A DNA stretch of 39,379 bases, from positions 1 through 39,379 of the forward strand of contig CAYPLG010000003.1 of the NCBI GenBank assembly GCA_964411535.1. Direction: 5' to 3'. The stretch's first letter is position 1. Every line of letters starts with the position of its first letter. Position numbers and translations under genes: made by a program. Of this stretch, positions 22,112 through 31,736 are shown piece after piece. The notes beneath the pieces were generated by a model, which saw only the letters and a program-made list of their open reading frames with translations, had not been told where the DNA came from and searched no databases. Source of the DNA: an uncultured Oscillospiraceae bacterium. GTDB lineage: Bacteria > Bacillota > Clostridia > Christensenellales > CAG-138.

Positions 22112-23065
22112 TTATGCATCGTCGCCGCTATTTTCAAAATTGATTCGTTCCTCCACAATTACAAGCGGCCGGTGCATTACGCGCGTGTTGATGCTCATAA
22201 TGTATTCGCCAAGAAAGCCGATGAAAAACAGGATTACGGAGCTGAACACAAACAGCCCGATCACCATCGGCGCCATGCCGACCGTAAATTCGTACCACTT
22301 GCACAGCTTGAGAATCAAATAGACGACCGCTACCACAATGCTTACCGCCGCAAGCGCGAATCCGGTAATCGTTGCAATGCGCAGCCCTACCTTGGTATAG
22401 CTTGTCACGGAAAGCATCGCCGCGTCATAAAGCGTGTAAAAGTTATTGTGCGTTTTGCCCGCGCGCCGCTTCTGCTGCTCGTACGGCACGTCGCAGCGCT
22501 TATAGCCCAGCTCCGCAACAATGCCGCGTAAAAACGGCGTGGGGTCGTCCAGCGTCTTGAGAATATCGATGAACTCGCGATCATACAGACCGAACCCTGT
22601 AAAATGCTCTATTTGCTCAACGCTCGACATCCTTTTGATAATTTTGTAATACAGAGTCCGCAGCGCACGAAAGAACGGATTCTCCCGGCTGGTGGTCTTG
22701 ATGCCGGAAACGATTTTATATCCCTCCTCCCACCGTGCAACAAACGTAGGAATCAGCTCCACGGGGTCCTGGAAGTCGCAGCACAACGTTACGGTACAGT
22801 CGCCCGTCGTTTGGCACATACCAAAGTACGGCGAATTAAACTGCCCAAAGTTTTTGGCGTTCAATATCGCCTTGATCTTCGGGTTCTTTGCGCAGATAAG
22901 CCGGAGCAAATCGCGCGTGCCGTCATCGGAGCAGTTGTCAATAAAGACAAGCTCGTAATCATAATGCGCAAGCTGCTGTGTCATCACAGAAACAATCGCT
23001 TCGCTCATGGGCACAACGTTCTCCGCCTCATTATAGCACGGAATCAATATGCTGATTTTCTTCAA
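22112..23065 (-). CDS. GT2 polyprenyl-phosphate glycosyltransferase (GtrB/CsbB-like)
   Basis: ILIPCYNE, FIDNCSDDGT and a DxD-type region, plus two C-terminal TM helices. TTG start 10 nt after AAGGAGG, with a TTGA overlap on the upstream stop. Confidence 0.85.
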   Translation of the reverse strand: MKKISILIPCYNEAENVVPMSEAIVSVMTQQLAHYDYELVFIDNCSDDGTRDLLRLICAKNPKIKAILNAKNFGQFNSPYFGMCQTTGDCTVTLCCDFQDPVELIPTFVARWEEGYKIVSGIKTTSRENPFFRALRTLYYKIIKRMSSVEQIEHFTGFGLYDREFIDILKTLDDPTPFLRGIVAELGYKRCDVPYEQQKRRAGKTHNNFYTLYDAAMLSVTSYTKVGLRIATITGFALAAVSIVVAVVYLILKLCKWYEFTVGMAPMVIGLFVFSSVILFFIGFLGEYIMSINTRVMHRPLVIVEERINFENSGDDA

Positions 23066-24864
23066 AGGCCTTCGACCTCCTTATTCCTTCTGTATTCCTC
23101 CGGCGGGAGGAACGGATACATGTCGTCTATGGGCGGGGATACAATTTTCCCATCCGGCAAAACCTTGCTGGACAGCTTCGGCGCAAAGAATTGCCGTTCG
23201 TCCAGCATCACTTCGCAAATAACCGGTCCGTCAGCCGAAAGAACCGTTCGCACCCCTTCCGCCGCGCGGTCGATATCGTCGATGCGCACATAGGGAATAC
23301 CGTATGCATACGCAATCTTTTCCATATCGGGAAAGCTTAAGCCGTTCCCGTCGCACACGCCGACAAGCGGCGGTTTGAAAAGGTTCGTTTGCGTTTGCCT
23401 TATCGAATGATACCCGTTGTTATTTAGATAGAACAGCTTCAGGTTCAAACGGTTGTACACGACGGTTTGCAACTCCTGCAAATTCATCTGAAAGCTTCCG
23501 TCGCCGTCAAGGCAGATGACGCGCTTCCCCTTCGTCGCCACGCATGCGCCGATCGCGGCCGGAAAACCGTAGCCCATCGCCGCGCAGCCGGAGTTTGTAA
23601 AGAGCCGCTGCCCGCGCCGCAGCCTCGCAGCCTGAAAGGACACCACGCATGCGCTGCCGTTGCCCGTTATGATGATCTCGTTCTCCTGCAATTCGTCAAA
23701 TAGCGTCTTCATAAACGCGTATGGGTTCATCGGCGATTTCGTTTCGTAATACTCCGGCAGTACGGCGGGGTATCGAAGGTTGATATCCCGGCACCAGGCA
23801 AGCCAGTTCGCATGCGCAGGGTTCCTCTCGTACCCGGAATCCGCGATTGCGCGCATTACGTCCGAAACGCATGCCCACACGGGCAGGTCGGGATGAATGG
23901 TCGGTTTGCATAGCTCGTTACGGTCAATATCTACAATGATCTTATATGCATTCTTTGCAAAGTCGCGATAGTTATAGCTAATCTGCCGGATATTCAAGCG
24001 GCAGCCGAGCACCAGCAGACAATCGCTGTTCTCCACGATAAAGTTGCCGCCGCGCGTGCCGATTGTGCCGGGCCTGCCGCAGTACAGCGGATGATCGTCG
24101 TACAAATCGTCATGCGCGTTCCATGCCGTAACCACCGGGATTCCGAGCTTGTCGATACAGTTTAAGAATGCGTCATGCCCGCCGGAAAGACGCACACCGC
24201 TACCCGCAAAAACCACCGGCCGTTTGGCCATACGAATCCGGTCGAGGATAACCGGCGTCAGCGACGCGTCGTATACGGGTTCCTCGTTCGCCGCGTCTTC
24301 GGCGGGATCGTAGCCTTCCAGCGTGTCGGGCGTAATGCGCGCGGCCTGCACGTCCAGCGGGATATCCAGCCAAACGGGACCGCCGCGGCCATGCAAAGCA
24401 AGGTACAGCGCCTTTTCCAGATGGTAGCGGATTTCTGTCGGTTCCGTCACCATAACGGCATACTTCGTCATAGGACGTACAGACGCAACAATGTTATACT
24501 CCTGATCGCCCAGCTGCCGAAGCGGCACGTCGCTCGCCCAGGTCGTCGTCTCCCGCTTGACCTGTCCGGATATGACAAACATCGGTATGGAGTCGAGCCA
24601 GCCGCCAAGAACGCCGGTAATCGCGTTCGTGCCGCCGGGGCCGGAGGTTACGCACACCGCCGCAAGCCTGTTGGTCAGGCGCGTATAGGCCTCCGCCGCG
24701 ATCGCGCACGCCTGCTCATGGTGGTGAAACGTACATTTGAGGCCCGCCTTATGGCCGAAAGCGTCGTCAAGATGCATCGCGCCGCCGCCGGTAAGCATAA
24801 ACATATCGGTAACGCCGTGACTCACCAAAAAATCTGCAATATAGTCCGCCAATCGTATCTGCAT
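23062..24864 (-). CDS. thiamine-diphosphate enzyme, acetolactate-synthase-like three-domain type
   Basis: N-terminal HGVTDMFMLTGGGAMHL...HEQA, and C-terminal ThDP motif GDGSFQMNLQELQT...NNNGY. Start set at ATG 24864 (MQIRLADY...), 6 nt after AGGAG. The track's ATG 24882 is an alternative. Confidence 0.85.
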   Translation of the reverse strand: MQIRLADYIADFLVSHGVTDMFMLTGGGAMHLDDAFGHKAGLKCTFHHHEQACAIAAEAYTRLTNRLAAVCVTSGPGGTNAITGVLGGWLDSIPMFVISGQVKRETTTWASDVPLRQLGDQEYNIVASVRPMTKYAVMVTEPTEIRYHLEKALYLALHGRGGPVWLDIPLDVQAARITPDTLEGYDPAEDAANEEPVYDASLTPVILDRIRMAKRPVVFAGSGVRLSGGHDAFLNCIDKLGIPVVTAWNAHDDLYDDHPLYCGRPGTIGTRGGNFIVENSDCLLVLGCRLNIRQISYNYRDFAKNAYKIIVDIDRNELCKPTIHPDLPVWACVSDVMRAIADSGYERNPAHANWLAWCRDINLRYPAVLPEYYETKSPMNPYAFMKTLFDELQENEIIITGNGSACVVSFQAARLRRGQRLFTNSGCAAMGYGFPAAIGACVATKGKRVICLDGDGSFQMNLQELQTVVYNRLNLKLFYLNNNGYHSIRQTQTNLFKPPLVGVCDGNGLSFPDMEKIAYAYGIPYVRIDDIDRAAEGVRTVLSADGPVICEVMLDERQFFAPKLSSKVLPDGKIVSPPIDDMYPFLPPEEYRRNKEVEGL

Positions 24865-24991
24865 CTGGTTCTCCTGTAGCATGTATTGCGAAATCCCTAT
24901 TCGCCCAGCGGCCTTGCGCCAAGTCGCGAAAGGTATGCGTATGCGTCGGCAAGTTCTCCGCGTGTAACATCGTGCACAAGCGTAAGCCTGG

Positions 24992-25204
24992 CGCCGTTAC
25001 AAACGCAACCGGAAGCGCATCCTTCGTTTCCGTTCAAGTACTTTCGTACATATCCGTTCAAATAATCCGCCTTGTCCTTTGCAAAGCCATACTCTCCATA
25101 TCGGTCTTATAATAGTTCATGTCGCTCGCCCGGTGCCCGCCAAAACCGGCGAGGGCAACGCTATGCACGCCCGCGCCGCGAATCGCCTTTAACAGCATGA
25201 CAAG
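24992..25204 (-). pseudogene. decayed duplicate of the 3' end of the aldolase/DUF115 gene
   Basis: Aligns by eye to 25897-26106 with about 11 substitutions plus +1 and +2 nt indels. Has no start codon and overlaps the last codons of the HAD gene. Confidence 0.8.
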
Positions 25205-25869
25205 TATTCTAATACTTCCGCCGCGTTCGCGCAAGGATATCCGCCCAGTGCGAGTACCTCTTCGCTGCGTGCAAATCCATAGCCATAAGTAACGCCAATA
25301 AAGGCAATCCCTGCGGCAGCAGCTCCCTCCGCGTCACTCGCGGTATCGCCAACCATGACCGCACGTTCCGCAGGAACAGCTGCCTCCGCAAGACATAGGC
25401 GTATAATATCGCGTTTTTGCATCTTACCTGCAAAATCCGACCCATGCCAAATCTTTACATAGCGATCAAGCCCAAAGTGAGAAAGCAACGTTCCCACATA
25501 GTCCTCGCGCTTATAGGTTGCCACAGCGATACACACACCGCAAGCACAGAGCGCAGCAAGCATTTCGTAAACACCTGGATATAGCGTTGCGTGAAATAGA
25601 TCTACTTGTTTGTAGCGCGCGCGAAACATTGCAGCCATGTCTGCTGCCGTCATCTCATCCACGTTGTAATAATGACGAAAGGAATTCTGAATCGGTGGGC
25701 CAATAAAAGTCCGAAATGCGGCGTCCGTGACAGGTGGCAGGCCAAAAGCGTTCGTCGTATACTGTACTGCGCTGTACATTCCTTGTGCGGGATCAAGCAA
25801 CGTGCCGTCGATATCAAATATCGCTAGACGGCTGTCCGTGTTGAGTATGCTGTGCGCTTTCTCTTCCAT
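25189..25869 (-). CDS. HAD-superfamily hydrolase (phosphoglycolate-phosphatase-like)
   Basis: Motif I FDIDGTLLD, motif III/IV VGDTASDAEGA. 6-nt gap after the upstream gene. Confidence 0.85.
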   Translation of the reverse strand: MEEKAHSILNTDSRLAIFDIDGTLLDPAQGMYSAVQYTTNAFGLPPVTDAAFRTFIGPPIQNSFRHYYNVDEMTAADMAAMFRARYKQVDLFHATLYPGVYEMLAALCACGVCIAVATYKREDYVGTLLSHFGLDRYVKIWHGSDFAGKMQKRDIIRLCLAEAAVPAERAVMVGDTASDAEGAAAAGIAFIGVTYGYGFARSEEVLALGGYPCANAAEVLEYLSCC

Positions 25870-25875
25870 AACAGC

Positions 25876-27483
25876 CTATTCCCCCTCATATTCGGACGCC
25901 GTTACAAACGTAACCGGAAGCGCATCCTTCGTTTCGTGCAAGTACTTCCGTACATATCCGTTCAGATAATCCGCCTTGTCCTTTGCAAAGCCATACTCCA
26001 TATTGGTCTTATAATAGTTCATATCGCTCGCCCGGTACCCGTCAAAACCCGCGAGGGCAACGCTATGCACACCCGCGCCGCGAAGCGCCTTTAACAGCAT
26101 GACTAGCGAGTTGTCGGGAATCTCCGTTTTAGGATCGATCAGCGCACTGTAATTGAGCACATACGGAAAATCCCCCTGTGCGCGCGTTACGTTGGAGGTT
26201 GCTACAATCGCAATGGTATCCTCCACCTTGGCAAGGCGGGAAGCCATCTGCGCATACCGCTTCGCATTCGTGATAAACAGCCACTTGACCGTTTCACAGT
26301 AAGCCCGCGGCAGAAAATTGATGGAGAATACAACCGGGCGGCGCTGCCGTATGTACGCCTGCACATCCGCCTGCTTATGCGCAATAGACGGCCCCGGCCC
26401 CAGCACCAGCACCTCGCGTCCTTGCAGCTTCTCAAACAATGCCGCCCGCGCATCCGCATCGTCGCACTCGTTCTTTTGAAAATCCAGATAGAGCGCTTCA
26501 ATCCGCTTTTGGTTGTACAGCAATTTTTCGTCGCCCACCAGCTGCGAAAGGATCTCCTTAATGGACTTCATCGAAAGCGTTCGCTTTTCCATCAGATAGG
26601 ACACATAGTTCGGATGGCACTTGTTGCTCGCCGCTACATAGTAAAAGAAGTTGTAGCCCCACGGGGTTACGCGGTAAATGTCGAGGATATTCGTCTCGAT
26701 GGCTTCGAGCAGCTGGCTTACATCGTACGATTTTCCGCAATGCTCGTTCATATACATGGAGATGAGCTCAATCGGCGCGTTACCTGCGCTCTTGCCCATG
26801 CCGTACAGCGAGCCGTCCACAACGATGTCGCGCTGCGTATCCGCATGGAGCATGCTGATGCTGTTCGCATAACCCATCTGAAAATTGTTGTGCGCATGAT
26901 AGCCCAGAGCAATCTCCGGCAACAAATGCGCGTCCGCAACCTTGAAAATATGCAGCAGATTGCTTTGATGCAGCAGGCCGTACGTATCCACCATGGACAT
27001 GGCAAACGGGCACACGCTGTTGACAAGGCCGATGAGTTCCAGCAGTTCCGGGTCGGAGTAGCTGGTAATCGATACGGCTTGCGCAAAAACCCGGTAACCA
27101 AGCTTCTTCACCTCCGCGCAAAAAGCAAGCGCCTCGTGCATCAGGTGCTTTTTGAATATCACGCGTATGCCGTCGAGCACGGTATTCTCGCAAGGCTCTA
27201 TGTTTGCAATCGGACACGTGCCATAGTCGATCATGCCGACGACAATCGCGTCGCCTTTGTGAATGCCGCCGTAGATGCGCGTCGCGCTCTTTGTATCCGG
27301 CATAATGCTGCGGTTTTCGTCAAAGGGTCTGCGCGCATCCAGAAATCCGACTTCGATTATGTCCACGCCTGCGCCGGCCAACCGCTCAAACACGCTGGTC
27401 AGCGTATCGCGCCCGAATTCCCAGTCGTTGATGTAACCGCCGTCGCGCAGTGTGCAATCCAGCAAGCGGAGCTTCCTCGTCAT
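25876..27483 (-). CDS. fusion protein: HMGL-like (DRE-TIM) aldolase domain plus DUF115/MptE-like domain
   Basis: N-terminal DCTLRDGG and YHAHNN metal-site motifs. C-terminal LVLGPGPSI and VALAGFDGY, characteristic of DUF115 (Maf/MptE-like). ATG 27483 follows GGGGGAGG, with an ATGA overlap on the gtrA stop. Confidence 0.75.
   Translation of the reverse strand: MTRKLRLLDCTLRDGGYINDWEFGRDTLTSVFERLAGAGVDIIEVGFLDARRPFDENRSIMPDTKSATRIYGGIHKGDAIVVGMIDYGTCPIANIEPCENTVLDGIRVIFKKHLMHEALAFCAEVKKLGYRVFAQAVSITSYSDPELLELIGLVNSVCPFAMSMVDTYGLLHQSNLLHIFKVADAHLLPEIALGYHAHNNFQMGYANSISMLHADTQRDIVVDGSLYGMGKSAGNAPIELISMYMNEHCGKSYDVSQLLEAIETNILDIYRVTPWGYNFFYYVAASNKCHPNYVSYLMEKRTLSMKSIKEILSQLVGDEKLLYNQKRIEALYLDFQKNECDDADARAALFEKLQGREVLVLGPGPSIAHKQADVQAYIRQRRPVVFSINFLPRAYCETVKWLFITNAKRYAQMASRLAKVEDTIAIVATSNVTRAQGDFPYVLNYSALIDPKTEIPDNSLVMLLKALRGAGVHSVALAGFDGYRASDMNYYKTNMEYGFAKDKADYLNGYVRKYLHETKDALPVTFVTASEYEGE
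25897..26106 (-). repeat. intact copy of the ~210-bp direct repeat flanking the HAD gene
   Basis: See 24992-25204. This copy is in frame within the aldolase/DUF115 CDS. Confidence 0.8.
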
Positions 27484-27992
27484 TTTTCCGCCGCCTCCCC
27501 CGCCGTTGTCTCCTCCGCCTCGGAAGGCGATTTGCGAAACGCCCAAAACTTATTGACAAGGAAATTCAGGGGAACCGTTATGCAAAGGTTGATCAACGGC
27601 GCAATATTCTCCGATATATGGAGCTTATCCACCCATAGCCACAGCAGCACAGCGCCAAGCAGATAGCTCGTCAGTCCGTACCCGGCTACGGTTCGCGCAA
27701 AGGTTTTCAGATGCTCGAAAAACGTCCGCCGTCTGCCCATTTTGAACACATAGCGGCTGTTCCAGAAATAGGAATTCACAACGCCGACAACAAAACCGAG
27801 AAAATTGGCAAGCTGGTGATGCAAGTGGAACACGTTCACGCATACATAATATACGCCCAGGCTGATCAGCGTATTGGACACGCCTACAATCCCGAACTTA
27901 ATAAACTGCATAATCGTGCTTTTGAGGCCTTCCGACCGTATGGTCTCCTTTATATTGGATAGCTGAAAGCCCGGCTTTTTTTGCATTTCCAT
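27480..27992 (-). CDS. GtrA-family membrane protein
   Basis: FIKFGIVGVSNTLISLGVYY signature, four helices. First gene of the glycan operon. Confidence 0.85.
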   Translation of the reverse strand: MEMQKKPGFQLSNIKETIRSEGLKSTIMQFIKFGIVGVSNTLISLGVYYVCVNVFHLHHQLANFLGFVVGVVNSYFWNSRYVFKMGRRRTFFEHLKTFARTVAGYGLTSYLLGAVLLWLWVDKLHISENIAPLINLCITVPLNFLVNKFWAFRKSPSEAEETTAGEAAEK

Positions 27993-28079
27993 CGGCGTAT
28001 GCCACTTTCCCGGCTGCGCGAAATGTATATACGCATACCGCTACTACTACATTGTAGCATAGTTTGATGAAAAGCAAAA

Positions 28080-28105
28080 CCCGTCAGTCGTAATACTCGA
28101 ACACC
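28080..28105. repeat. left copy of 26-bp perfect direct repeat (orphan gene-end fragment)
   Basis: CCCGTCAGTCGTAATACTCGAACACC, identical to 31711-31736. Confidence 0.95.
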
Positions 28106-29836: not shown

Positions 29837-31525
29837 TTAATCGTTTTCTACATAAGCATAGTTACCGGAACCTACAAATCGATTCACAAGGTACCTAGAC
29901 AAATTCAAAGGGGTACGCAATGCATTGTCTTCCTCTCCGTTCTTGTATGCATCCGGCACCCGTATTGCGCTTATTACGCTATTCCAAAGTTCTTGCGCCG
30001 GAGTATCATCGCCGAATGCCGCATTAAAATCCTCTTCCGTATTGTTGTGAAGTCCATGATCACCTTGTAAAATGATCACTGCATTCGGATCCTGTGTACA
30101 AATAGCATCAATCATTCCTAGCAGAACTTTGCTCGTATAAACATGATTTCCTAGGTAATTGCAAATTTCACGACTGTCCTTCGTACTGTCAATCACATTC
30201 CCTTCAGAATCATATGCAAAAGGATTATGCGCCATCTCAAACATCAAAACTGTAAGCTGTGGCGCAATATCTGTTTGTAGCGTCATGAAAAACTCTTTTG
30301 CAAAGTTTAGATCGCAGGTTAAAGAGCGTTCTGTCATCCGCAACTGTTGTAATTCCTCTTTAGATATGGAATAATTCACTTCACCAGCAAGCTGTTCGTG
30401 TTGAGTATCCTTATCCGCGCCGTGCAACATCTCAAAAATAATAAACGCAGGCTTTGCAAATGTTTCCAAAAAAGCTTCGTACTGTATTTGTTCCTTAATC
30501 TTCTGTACATCAGAAGCACCTCGACTGACTTGATTCGATGGCAAAGTACAGCTTTGCAAGTAAATCGAATCCGTTGTTCGGTTAATATAGTCACTGAACA
30601 AAAAGAAATCCGTTCCTTCCGGAAAAAACACCCCCGGATATGTGCAAACTATTTTTATCCGATAGCCTTTGAGCCGAAACGCTGTAAATAGATCAAGGTT
30701 CCTTCGTGCTTCAACTACGTTCTTGCTGGAACCTACCGCCGTACGATCTTTTTATGATTGGATTATTTCTTTCAATGTATCATCATAGTAATCTGGGCTC
30801 ATCATCGACGGAATTGCAACATACGTAATATGTAACGACTCCAGATATGCATTTTTGTTTAATGCGAATCCTCGTTCATTAAGTGCGGCATTAAATGCTG
30901 CTTGTTCATCGTGAAAATATTTATTGACCGTATCAAATCCAAGCATTCCGTCACAATGAATCCAATAAATATTTGGACTTTCCTGACGATTAACTTCAAA
31001 ATCCGTCCGATAATCAGCACTTGTAGCAATAGCGATTTTCTTCTGTTCAGTATTCCGAATAATAATACGAGCGCTATTCATACTAAGTAATGCAAGTATA
31101 ACCGTAAATAAAAACACTGCAACAACGTCATCGGCCGCTTCGTGTTTTCGTAAAACAATACCGATTACAATCGCAATAATTATGAAAATAGAAATTGATA
31201 TAGGCAATCCGTGTACTTCCCGATCAAGGAGGTCGCAAAATAAAGCTCTAAGTTCGTTATAAGAAAAAAATATGATCCAAAAAATAATACATATTGCAAT
31301 TGCCGACAAGAAACTTTGAAAAATTGCTCGTGCCGAATAATACAATATAATGGAAAATACCATTTCAAATACACAAATAAGTAAAATGTATCGAAATAAT
31401 ACTTGTTCTACGTTTTGGCTGTAATAATACGATGTAATTGCTACTGGAATTAATGCAGATGAAATAAAAAACATCCATTTGTATAATTCAGCAGACCTAC
31501 ATTTTTCCATAGTTCTCATTTTCAA
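29837..31525 (-). pseudogene. sulfatase/LTA-synthase-family membrane protein interrupted by one in-frame TAA
   Basis: ORFs 30752-31525 (five TM helices plus PNIYWIHCDGMLGF) and 29837-30631 (ILQGDHG sulfatase motif) are in the same frame. The 40 codons between them contain no further stop. The stop codon is at 30752-30754. Confidence 0.7.
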
Positions 31526-31662: not shown

Positions 31663-31708
31663 ATAGAACCATAATATGTCCTACAATAGAACCATAATAT
31701 GTTCTACA
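31663..31708. repeat. 23-bp tandem direct repeat x2
   Basis: ATAGAACCATAATATGTCCTACA / ATAGAACCATAATATGTTCTACA, with one mismatch, abutting the right 26-bp repeat. Confidence 0.9.
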
Positions 31709-31710
31709 AA

Positions 31711-31736
31711 CCCGTCAGTCGTAATACTCGAACACC
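31711..31736. repeat. right copy of 26-bp direct repeat (functional 3' end of the M15 gene)
   Basis: Covers 4 nt after the stop, the stop codon, and codons VFEYYD of the 31715-33070 CDS. Confidence 0.95.

Follow-up and report, generated by a model that had tools for sequence, protein, structure and literature searches.

Within a 39,379-nt stretch of DNA from an uncultured Oscillospiraceae bacterium, a Gtr-type cell-surface sugar operon lies on the minus strand. The stretch, referred to here as the window, is the whole of contig CAYPLG010000003.1 (assembly GCA_964411535.1; contig C3 of the genome), and the genome is a metagenome-assembled genome of 205 contigs. In order of transcription the operon carries a GtrA-like gene, an aldolase gene (ALD), a HAD_2 phosphatase gene (HAD), a gap of 324 nt, a gene for a thiamine diphosphate (ThDP)-dependent enzyme and a GtrB-like GT2 gene. 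It is the gap, from the HAD stop at 25189 to the ThDP ATG at 24864, that is the subject of this analysis. It consists of a fragment of ALD, a fragment of a 3-dehydroquinate-synthase-like (DHQS) gene and a native spacer that leads into ThDP with its ribosome-binding site, and it is very probably a composite, non-functional recombination scar, formed when a HAD module displaced an SDR+DHQS module by two illegitimate joins. The features are, in the direction of transcription:

27480-27992, minus strand: GtrA-like gene, upstream of ALD
25876-27483, minus strand: ALD, intact aldolase gene, 535 aa, ATG at 27483 (Pfam HMGL-like, E 2.5e-22)
25897-26106, minus strand: repeat copy B, the functional ALD codons 460-529, including the invariant G-F-D-G-Y motif (alignment)
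25876-25896, minus strand: unrepeated ALD tail, S-E-Y-E-G-E-stop, with the invariant S530 and Y532
25189-25869, minus strand: HAD, HAD_2-type phosphatase gene, 226 aa (Pfam HAD_2, E 6e-31)
25204/25205: junction J1, HAD 3' end joined to ALD position -231
24992-25204, minus strand: repeat copy A (ghost 1), pseudogene fragment of ALD codons 460-529 (tblastn, E 2e-19)
24991/24992: junction J2, from ALD position -21 to roughly the 31st codon from the end of a DHQS-like gene
24897-24991, minus strand: ghost 2, the last ~31 codons and TAG stop of a DHQS-like gene (blastn, peptide alignments, tblastn)
24865-24896, minus strand: native spacer between DHQS and ThDP, including GGAGAA, the ribosome-binding site of ThDP
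23062-24864, minus strand: gene for the ThDP-dependent enzyme, 600 aa (Pfam TPP_enzyme N, M and C domains; homologues 600 aa)
22112-23065, minus strand: GtrB-like GT2 gene, directly after ThDP

An initial annotation, made by eye, had described a direct repeat of about 210 bp that flanks HAD, with about 11 substitutions and two indels. Local alignment bears this out: copy A (24992-25204, 213 nt) pairs with copy B (25897-26106, 210 nt) with 198 of 213 columns identical (93%), 12 substitutions, and one +1 and one +2 insertion in copy A (net +3). The alignment score is 348, the best of 200 shuffles reaching 28; a repeat search gives the same three ungapped blocks, and there are just these two copies in the genome. 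The final 16 nt of the HAD open reading frame (L-S-C-C-stop) fall inside copy A, such that the last four codons and the stop of HAD derive from it. The supply of the HAD stop by the edge of copy A and the gap length of 324 nt had also been given, and the earlier description of the repeat is correct in all essentials. The end of ALD (25876-25896, the last seven codons with the stop) lies outside the repeat, and there GAGGGGGA doubles as the Shine-Dalgarno sequence of HAD.

Copy A had been taken for a frameshifted ghost of the ALD 3' end, and its reading frame agrees. The coding strand gives LVMLLKAIRGAGVHSVALAGFGGHRASDMNYYKTDME, then a +2 shift and a stop; the true frame is back for YGFAKDKADYLNGYVRKYL, after which a +1 shift follows. 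Copy A thus has two frameshifts and an in-frame stop, and it lacks both a start and the tail. When four relatives are used as outgroups, L467I, D481G, Y483H, N494D and both indels map to the branch of copy A. A similar number of changes falls on the branch of copy B (three to four), and these are synonymous only. D481 and Y483 belong to the G-F-D-G-Y motif and are invariant in 119 of 119 homologues. Copy A has drifted free of constraint while copy B was kept under purifying selection, and copy A is a decaying, non-functional pseudogene fragment. The marks of a pseudogene fragment are present in the scar: homology to part of an intact gene, lost coding capacity and purifying selection, and alternative gene content in the corresponding slot of relatives. 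Do relatives carry both copies intact, as they would if these were separate functional sequences? Of the 152 related loci examined, the window alone has a second ALD 3' copy.

Gene callers place two small open reading frames in 24897-25234, one of 58 aa (25234-25058) and one of 54 aa (25061-24897). They are read-throughs of the two ghosts, the 54-aa frame crossing J2, and are almost certainly annotation artefacts; such short frames of 54-58 aa in the gap are a warning to annotators.

The gap had been considered otherwise empty. This does not hold for the 109 nt between copy A and the ThDP start of the initial annotation, as part of this segment, 24991-24897, is the remnant of a DHQS-like gene. 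Read in another frame, it encodes (A)RLTLVHDVTRGELADAYAYLSRLGARPLGE followed by a stop, and the peptide RLTLVHDVTRGELADAYAYLS matches the DHQS-like C-termini of three related loci, L042, L033 and L048. In relatives these C-termini are encoded just upstream of ThDP (in L042, AALTIVHDVTRAELSDAYAYLSAFAH and a stop; in L033, ARLRLVHDV...). The L042 segment 6590-7235, which comprises the DHQS 3' end, the spacer and the ThDP 5' end, aligns contiguously to window positions 24998-24350 with 77% identity over 652 nt (blastn), and tblastn with DHQS C-termini matches the window with an E value of 1.5e-8. Within this set of 152 loci, only the window combines a DHQS C-terminus match with the lack of a DHQS gene, and no similar ghost is present in the others.

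The operon is widespread in gut Clostridia and beyond, and patchy within the order (8 of 401 genomes). Its nearest relatives were taken from metagenome contigs and are of two types. The HAD type is represented by L040/L041 (ALD 85% identical at the amino acid level), which have the order GtrA-ALD-HAD-ThDP with spacers of 1 and 9 nt and no ghost, and by L050/L051 (ThDP 84%), with HAD-ThDP. The other type has ALD-SDR-DHQS-ThDP and is seen in L044/L048 (ALD 83%, ThDP 86%; GtrA-ALD-SDR-DHQS-ThDP-GT2), L042/L043 (ALD 78%) and G033 (ALD 71%). In 89 loci ALD and ThDP are both present with sufficient flank. HAD without SDR or DHQS occurs in 38 of them, SDR and/or DHQS without HAD in 30, neither nearby in 21 and both in none. 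With both modules found in 0 of the 68 loci that carry either one, HAD and SDR+DHQS are mutually exclusive alternative modules of one pathway.

The initial annotation had proposed a comparison with related genomes for alleles without HAD, where ALD is directly followed by ThDP. Such adjacency does exist, in about 20 of 80 distant species loci, but in no close relative. A HAD-less or pre-swap allele was not found at >90% identity, the closest ALD and ThDP homologues being at most 86% identical. An exact look-up of the ThDP protein gave nothing further, a degenerate DNA pattern for the DHQS-remnant peptide had no match in metagenome contigs, and a related-locus search in metagenome contigs gave nothing above 67%.

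Two observations concern the modules in their surroundings. Operons of the HAD type and of the SDR+DHQS type, from related organisms with 74-81% nucleotide identity, co-occur in the same metagenome samples: L044/L048 with L046 and L045/L049 with L047 (ERZ28614609, ERZ15185900), and L042/L043 with L050/L051 (ERZ27277086, ERZ23499766). Potential recombination partners therefore share a habitat. The acidic end of ALD, S-x-Y-E-E-E-stop (GAGGAGGAA), is conserved in the window (25876-25896) and at the same position in L040, L042 and L044, where GAGGAGGAA is the Shine-Dalgarno sequence of the next gene, be it HAD or SDR. The end of ALD and the signal that starts the module are thus a single unit.

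Is HAD a newcomer to the operon? The initial annotation argued so from G+C contents of 45% and 63% in single lines of HAD and ALD. This contrast is single-line noise, as 60-nt lines of either gene vary between 43 and 68% and the whole genes have 51.1% (HAD) and 53.9% (ALD), with no whole-gene jump at HAD. G+C at third codon positions (GC3) does differ strongly: it is 0.48 in HAD but 0.69 in ALD, 0.70 in ThDP, 0.67 in GT2 and 0.63 in GtrA; copy B has 0.63, like the rest of ALD, and in relatives the GC3 of HAD equals that of the neighbouring genes. The closest HAD homologue (L040) is 60% identical, whereas ALD is 85% identical to its counterpart there; the trend over 496 locus pairs predicts 72% for HAD (z = -2.4). 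By GC3 and by its excess divergence, HAD has the look of a newcomer; it may be either a recent import from a low-GC donor or a gene under relaxed selection. The native C-terminus in relatives reads ...ILDYF[L/A]-stop (L040 and L050 were compared) and here ...VLEYLSCC-stop. With J1 falling one or two codons ahead of the native stop, HAD is essentially complete.

How did the ends of two genes come to be stranded between HAD and ThDP? In the module swap that we consider very probable, the ancestral lineage would have had the order ALD-SDR-DHQS-ThDP. A compositionally foreign HAD would have arrived directly behind an intact ALD, with the old ALD 3' end displaced downstream of HAD (J1), and the old ALD tail, SDR and most of DHQS would have been deleted (J2). 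The stranded ends of ALD and DHQS would then have decayed neutrally, copy B being kept under purifying selection. Since the DHQS remnant runs contiguously into ThDP, as in relatives of the SDR+DHQS type, an SDR+DHQS module should have occupied the slot earlier, and the structure calls for two illegitimate junctions at the least. The mutual exclusivity of the modules would explain the loss of SDR+DHQS alongside the gain of HAD. Possible microhomology at J1 and J2 amounts to at most 2-5 nt, as judged from relatives at 70-85% identity with the parental sequences unavailable; at J2, 3-5 nt (GCG) are possible. No transposase, integrase or recombinase gene is present among the open reading frames of the window, and no inverted repeats are present at the ends. 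With a few bases of microhomology at most and no recombinase or transposase, the joins appear to be illegitimate. They might have been made by homology-facilitated illegitimate recombination, by single-crossover integration of a circularised fragment or by template switching. The repeat, the decay of copy A, the identity of the DHQS remnant, the alternative modules of relatives and the recurrence of the structure in independent assemblies are established; we infer the direction from SDR+DHQS to HAD, as well as the order and number of events and the enzymology of the joins.

Several points weigh against this reading. There is no break in identity to relatives at 26106 or elsewhere in ALD, and a homologous crossover point cannot be placed, the relatives being too distant to resolve one. 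Relatives above 90% identity that have an intact SDR+DHQS module or lack HAD were not found, so that the pre-swap allele is reconstructed solely from relatives of 70-85% identity. The GC3 and the divergence of HAD are the main grounds for the direction of the swap. HAD also deviates at 5 of 51 columns that are at least 95% conserved in 119 homologues, including T27P beside the DxDGT motif. These 5 deviations are the second-highest count among 120 homologues and may mean relaxed selection, not foreign origin. At least two junctions are required, their order is not fixed, and any microhomology assigned to J1 and J2 is guesswork. The data do not distinguish two steps, in whichever order, from one complex template-switching event.

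The two copies of the repeat are sister sequences, 94% identical on the coordinates of copy B and 67-79% identical to any relative. Together with the lack of a break at the repeat boundary, this points either to an intragenomic duplication or to a block of 'ALD end + HAD' from a very close relative with a low-GC3 HAD. The former could be a single event, in which microhomology-mediated template switching placed 'filler' of 213 nt, copied from the genome's own ALD 3' end, between HAD and the end of DHQS, so that copy A would never have been part of a working gene. The sister relationship fits this well, and one event would account for both illegitimate-looking junctions; its predictions are indistinguishable from those of the two-step models, and similar numbers of changes on the two branches fit a duplication or two close alleles alike. 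On balance template switching as the whole explanation seems unlikely. Could the swap have gone the other way? A lineage of the HAD type might have had its HAD-ThDP junction replaced from a close relative of the SDR+DHQS type, the incoming DNA entering by a homologous crossover in ThDP and being joined illegitimately to the 3' end of HAD, with the internal deletion already present or made later. The closest ALD relative (L040, 85%) is of the HAD type, the DHQS remnant, spacer and ThDP are contiguous, and by symmetry the junction data fit equally well. This direction is nevertheless unlikely because it is HAD that stands out in composition (GC3 0.48, against 0.70 in ThDP), and neither ThDP nor the ghosts do. 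HAD is also more diverged from L040 than ALD predicts, and useless DNA would have been imported with no gain. The initial annotation started instead from an ancestor with ALD and ThDP adjacent, into which a block of 'ALD 3' end + HAD' recombined, the old 3' end decaying in place. Part of this stands: there is a stranded copy, HAD looks like a newcomer, the order of repeat, tail, HAD and repeat fits a block insertion, and the adjacency does occur in distant species. An ALD-ThDP ancestor and a single join do not fit. The ghost is followed not by the ALD tail and ThDP but by a DHQS-like 3' end contiguous with ThDP, and the nearest relatives are all of the HAD or the SDR+DHQS type, none with ALD directly before ThDP, so that this scheme as a whole is quite improbable. 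Import of the block from a distant donor is unlikely, to judge from the native GC3 of copy B and the absence of a break at 26106; if the block was imported, the donor would have been a very close relative.

There are two further explanations. The genome is assembled from a metagenome, in 205 contigs, and relatives of both operon types share the same samples, so that the structure might be a chimera of co-occurring strains. A contig of another assembly (ENA, ERZ15185696) matches window positions 26211-21189 at 99.98% and spans both copies, HAD, ThDP and both junctions. At least three runs yield Logan contigs with 100% identity across 25062-25998, J1 included; these end exactly at a 33-nt block common to both copies, as a k=31 graph would. 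In two further ENA assemblies HAD follows ALD at 99.97-100% identity. A copy at 93% cannot stem from the co-occurring relatives, which are only 74-81% identical. With the structure present in independent assemblies, it is not an artefact; assembly error was rejected, and a chimera has next to no probability. The contigs L046 and L047, of the independent ENA assemblies ERZ28614609 and ERZ15185900, both end at base 25359, in HAD just before the GDxxxD motif. This break shared by two assemblies could be counted for a chimera; it suggests a branch in the assembly graph, from a strain variant or from a k-mer common to another HAD gene. The other explanation is that the arrangement is a functional element, the repeats acting as a switch that excises HAD, or the ghost encoding small proteins or a regulatory leader of ThDP. 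Direct repeats do flank a single gene, and the 58-aa and 54-aa frames are annotated in the gap. The ghost is unique among 152 loci, no recombinase gene is present in the window, and matches to terminators and promoters are at chance level, with no convincing terminator in the gap; these findings, with the behaviour of the repeat described below, make a functional element highly improbable. As ThDP keeps its own ribosome-binding site and no convincing terminator precedes it, the operon is probably still read through, with transcription passing across the scar.

That the repeats could mediate the loss of HAD had been suggested at the outset, and in principle they can. The identical stretches between the copies are 33 nt at the longest, then 24, 20, 18 and 18 nt. 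With 33 nt as the longest, homologous deletion of HAD should be rare. A crossover was simulated in each identical block, and every product damages ALD: the outcomes are a truncation at 507 aa, a protein of 560 aa that enters the frame of the DHQS remnant or a read-through of 603 aa, and the invariant S530/Y532 tail is lost. No clean ALD-ThDP allele is restored, and the C-terminus of ALD is damaged in the simulated products. Loss of HAD through the repeats would thus be coupled to loss of ALD function, a coupling that may help to retain the scar. Might RecA-dependent recombination between the diverged repeats still remove the 905-bp HAD unit now and then in natural populations, crippling the ALD C-terminus each time, and so act as an OFF switch of the surface-glycan modification pathway as a whole? 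We regard this as very doubtful; if true, such a one-step switch would make populations heterogeneous under pressure from phages or the immune system.

Campbell-type insertion-duplication, in which a circular fragment integrates by a single crossover, leaves a copy of the homology on either side of the insert. The present locus is alike in that the insert is bracketed by direct copies of a homology segment. It differs at copy A, which ends 21 nt before the ALD stop and is joined to the DHQS remnant; with the native tail absent from copy A, the Campbell-type route would need an extra deletion. Homology-facilitated illegitimate recombination (PMC3240628) likewise anchors foreign DNA by homology on one side and joins it illegitimately on the other, but the classical form deletes recipient DNA and does not duplicate it, and here the anchor and its crossover cannot be located. 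The scar lies near homology-facilitated illegitimate recombination (PMC3240628) or insertion-duplication and is a textbook case of neither. The displacement of C-terminal ends in Rhs/CDI systems, with their 'orphan' modules (PMC3150448), has the same topology: the old 3' end lies downstream and retains some of the conserved region, and the new 3' end with a gene, placed behind the conserved part, is bracketed by direct repeats. There is no toxin-immunity logic here, the displaced piece is the same sequence and not a different C-terminal domain, and the displaced copy is decayed, single and without a partner gene. In pneumococcal cps serotype switching (PMC5850285, PMC4380333) and in Klebsiella K-locus exchange (PMC13043062) a variable tailoring block likewise lies between conserved flanks, is exchanged by recombination and leaves pseudogene fragments. 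The present case, in contrast, concerns a Gtr-type operon that is uncharacterised and comes from an uncultured member of the gut Clostridia, and in place of a clean double crossover in the flanks it has two illegitimate joins that strand a duplicated gene end. A transposable element, an integron cassette or an island is not matched, as the duplication is 210 nt of coding sequence and not short (2-14 bp) or of the att type.

The scar is a familiar kind of gene-end remnant of recombining surface-polysaccharide loci, and no new mechanism is revealed. What it usefully adds is the second ghost and the alternation of HAD with SDR+DHQS. If the module swap is accepted, the scar is direct physical evidence that a HAD module and an SDR+DHQS-like tailoring module were swapped within one lineage, by illegitimate and not clean homologous recombination. 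The host operon (aldolase, ThDP enzyme, GT2) is of the Gtr type and is widespread but uncharacterised in gut Clostridia. As mutually exclusive alternatives at one step, the two modules would also constrain the chemistry of the pathway.

The ALD protein itself deserves comment. It consists of an N-terminal HMGL-like TIM-barrel aldolase domain and a conserved C-terminal alpha/beta domain (25876-26466, residues ~340-535), and its homologues are 530-540 aa long. The AF2 model has a pLDDT of 90.9, and its best fold matches are 3dxi and 4-hydroxy-2-oxovalerate aldolases, in a full-length search where the aldolase domain dominates. The initial annotation had labelled the C-terminal domain DUF115; this label (DUF115/MptE-like, PF01973) has no support by sequence, as the C-terminal half (residues ~300-535) gave no Pfam match at E<=1 and no PDB sequence match, a PDB profile search having found the aldolase domain only. 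Conserved motifs of the C-terminal domain are GPGPS and GFDGY. The PDB entry 3dxi is described as just the 'N-terminal domain' of a homologous Bacteroides protein, and the C-terminal domain of the ALD family therefore seems structurally uncharacterised.

The glycan locus has a second scar. Close to the upstream side of the operon, a direct repeat of 29 nt without mismatch (28077-28105 and 31708-31736) brackets a 3.6-kb block of low G+C (0.37-0.46). As with copies A and B, an insertion is bracketed by a duplicated gene end; the 29-nt duplication is much shorter and still exact, which suggests that it is younger or represents a different type of join. A second insertion with such a duplication in the window marks the locus as recombination-prone. 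A sulfatase/LtaS-like gene of 563 codons (29837-31525, minus strand) carries a single in-frame TAA and is either a fresh pseudogene or the product of a sequencing or strain variant.

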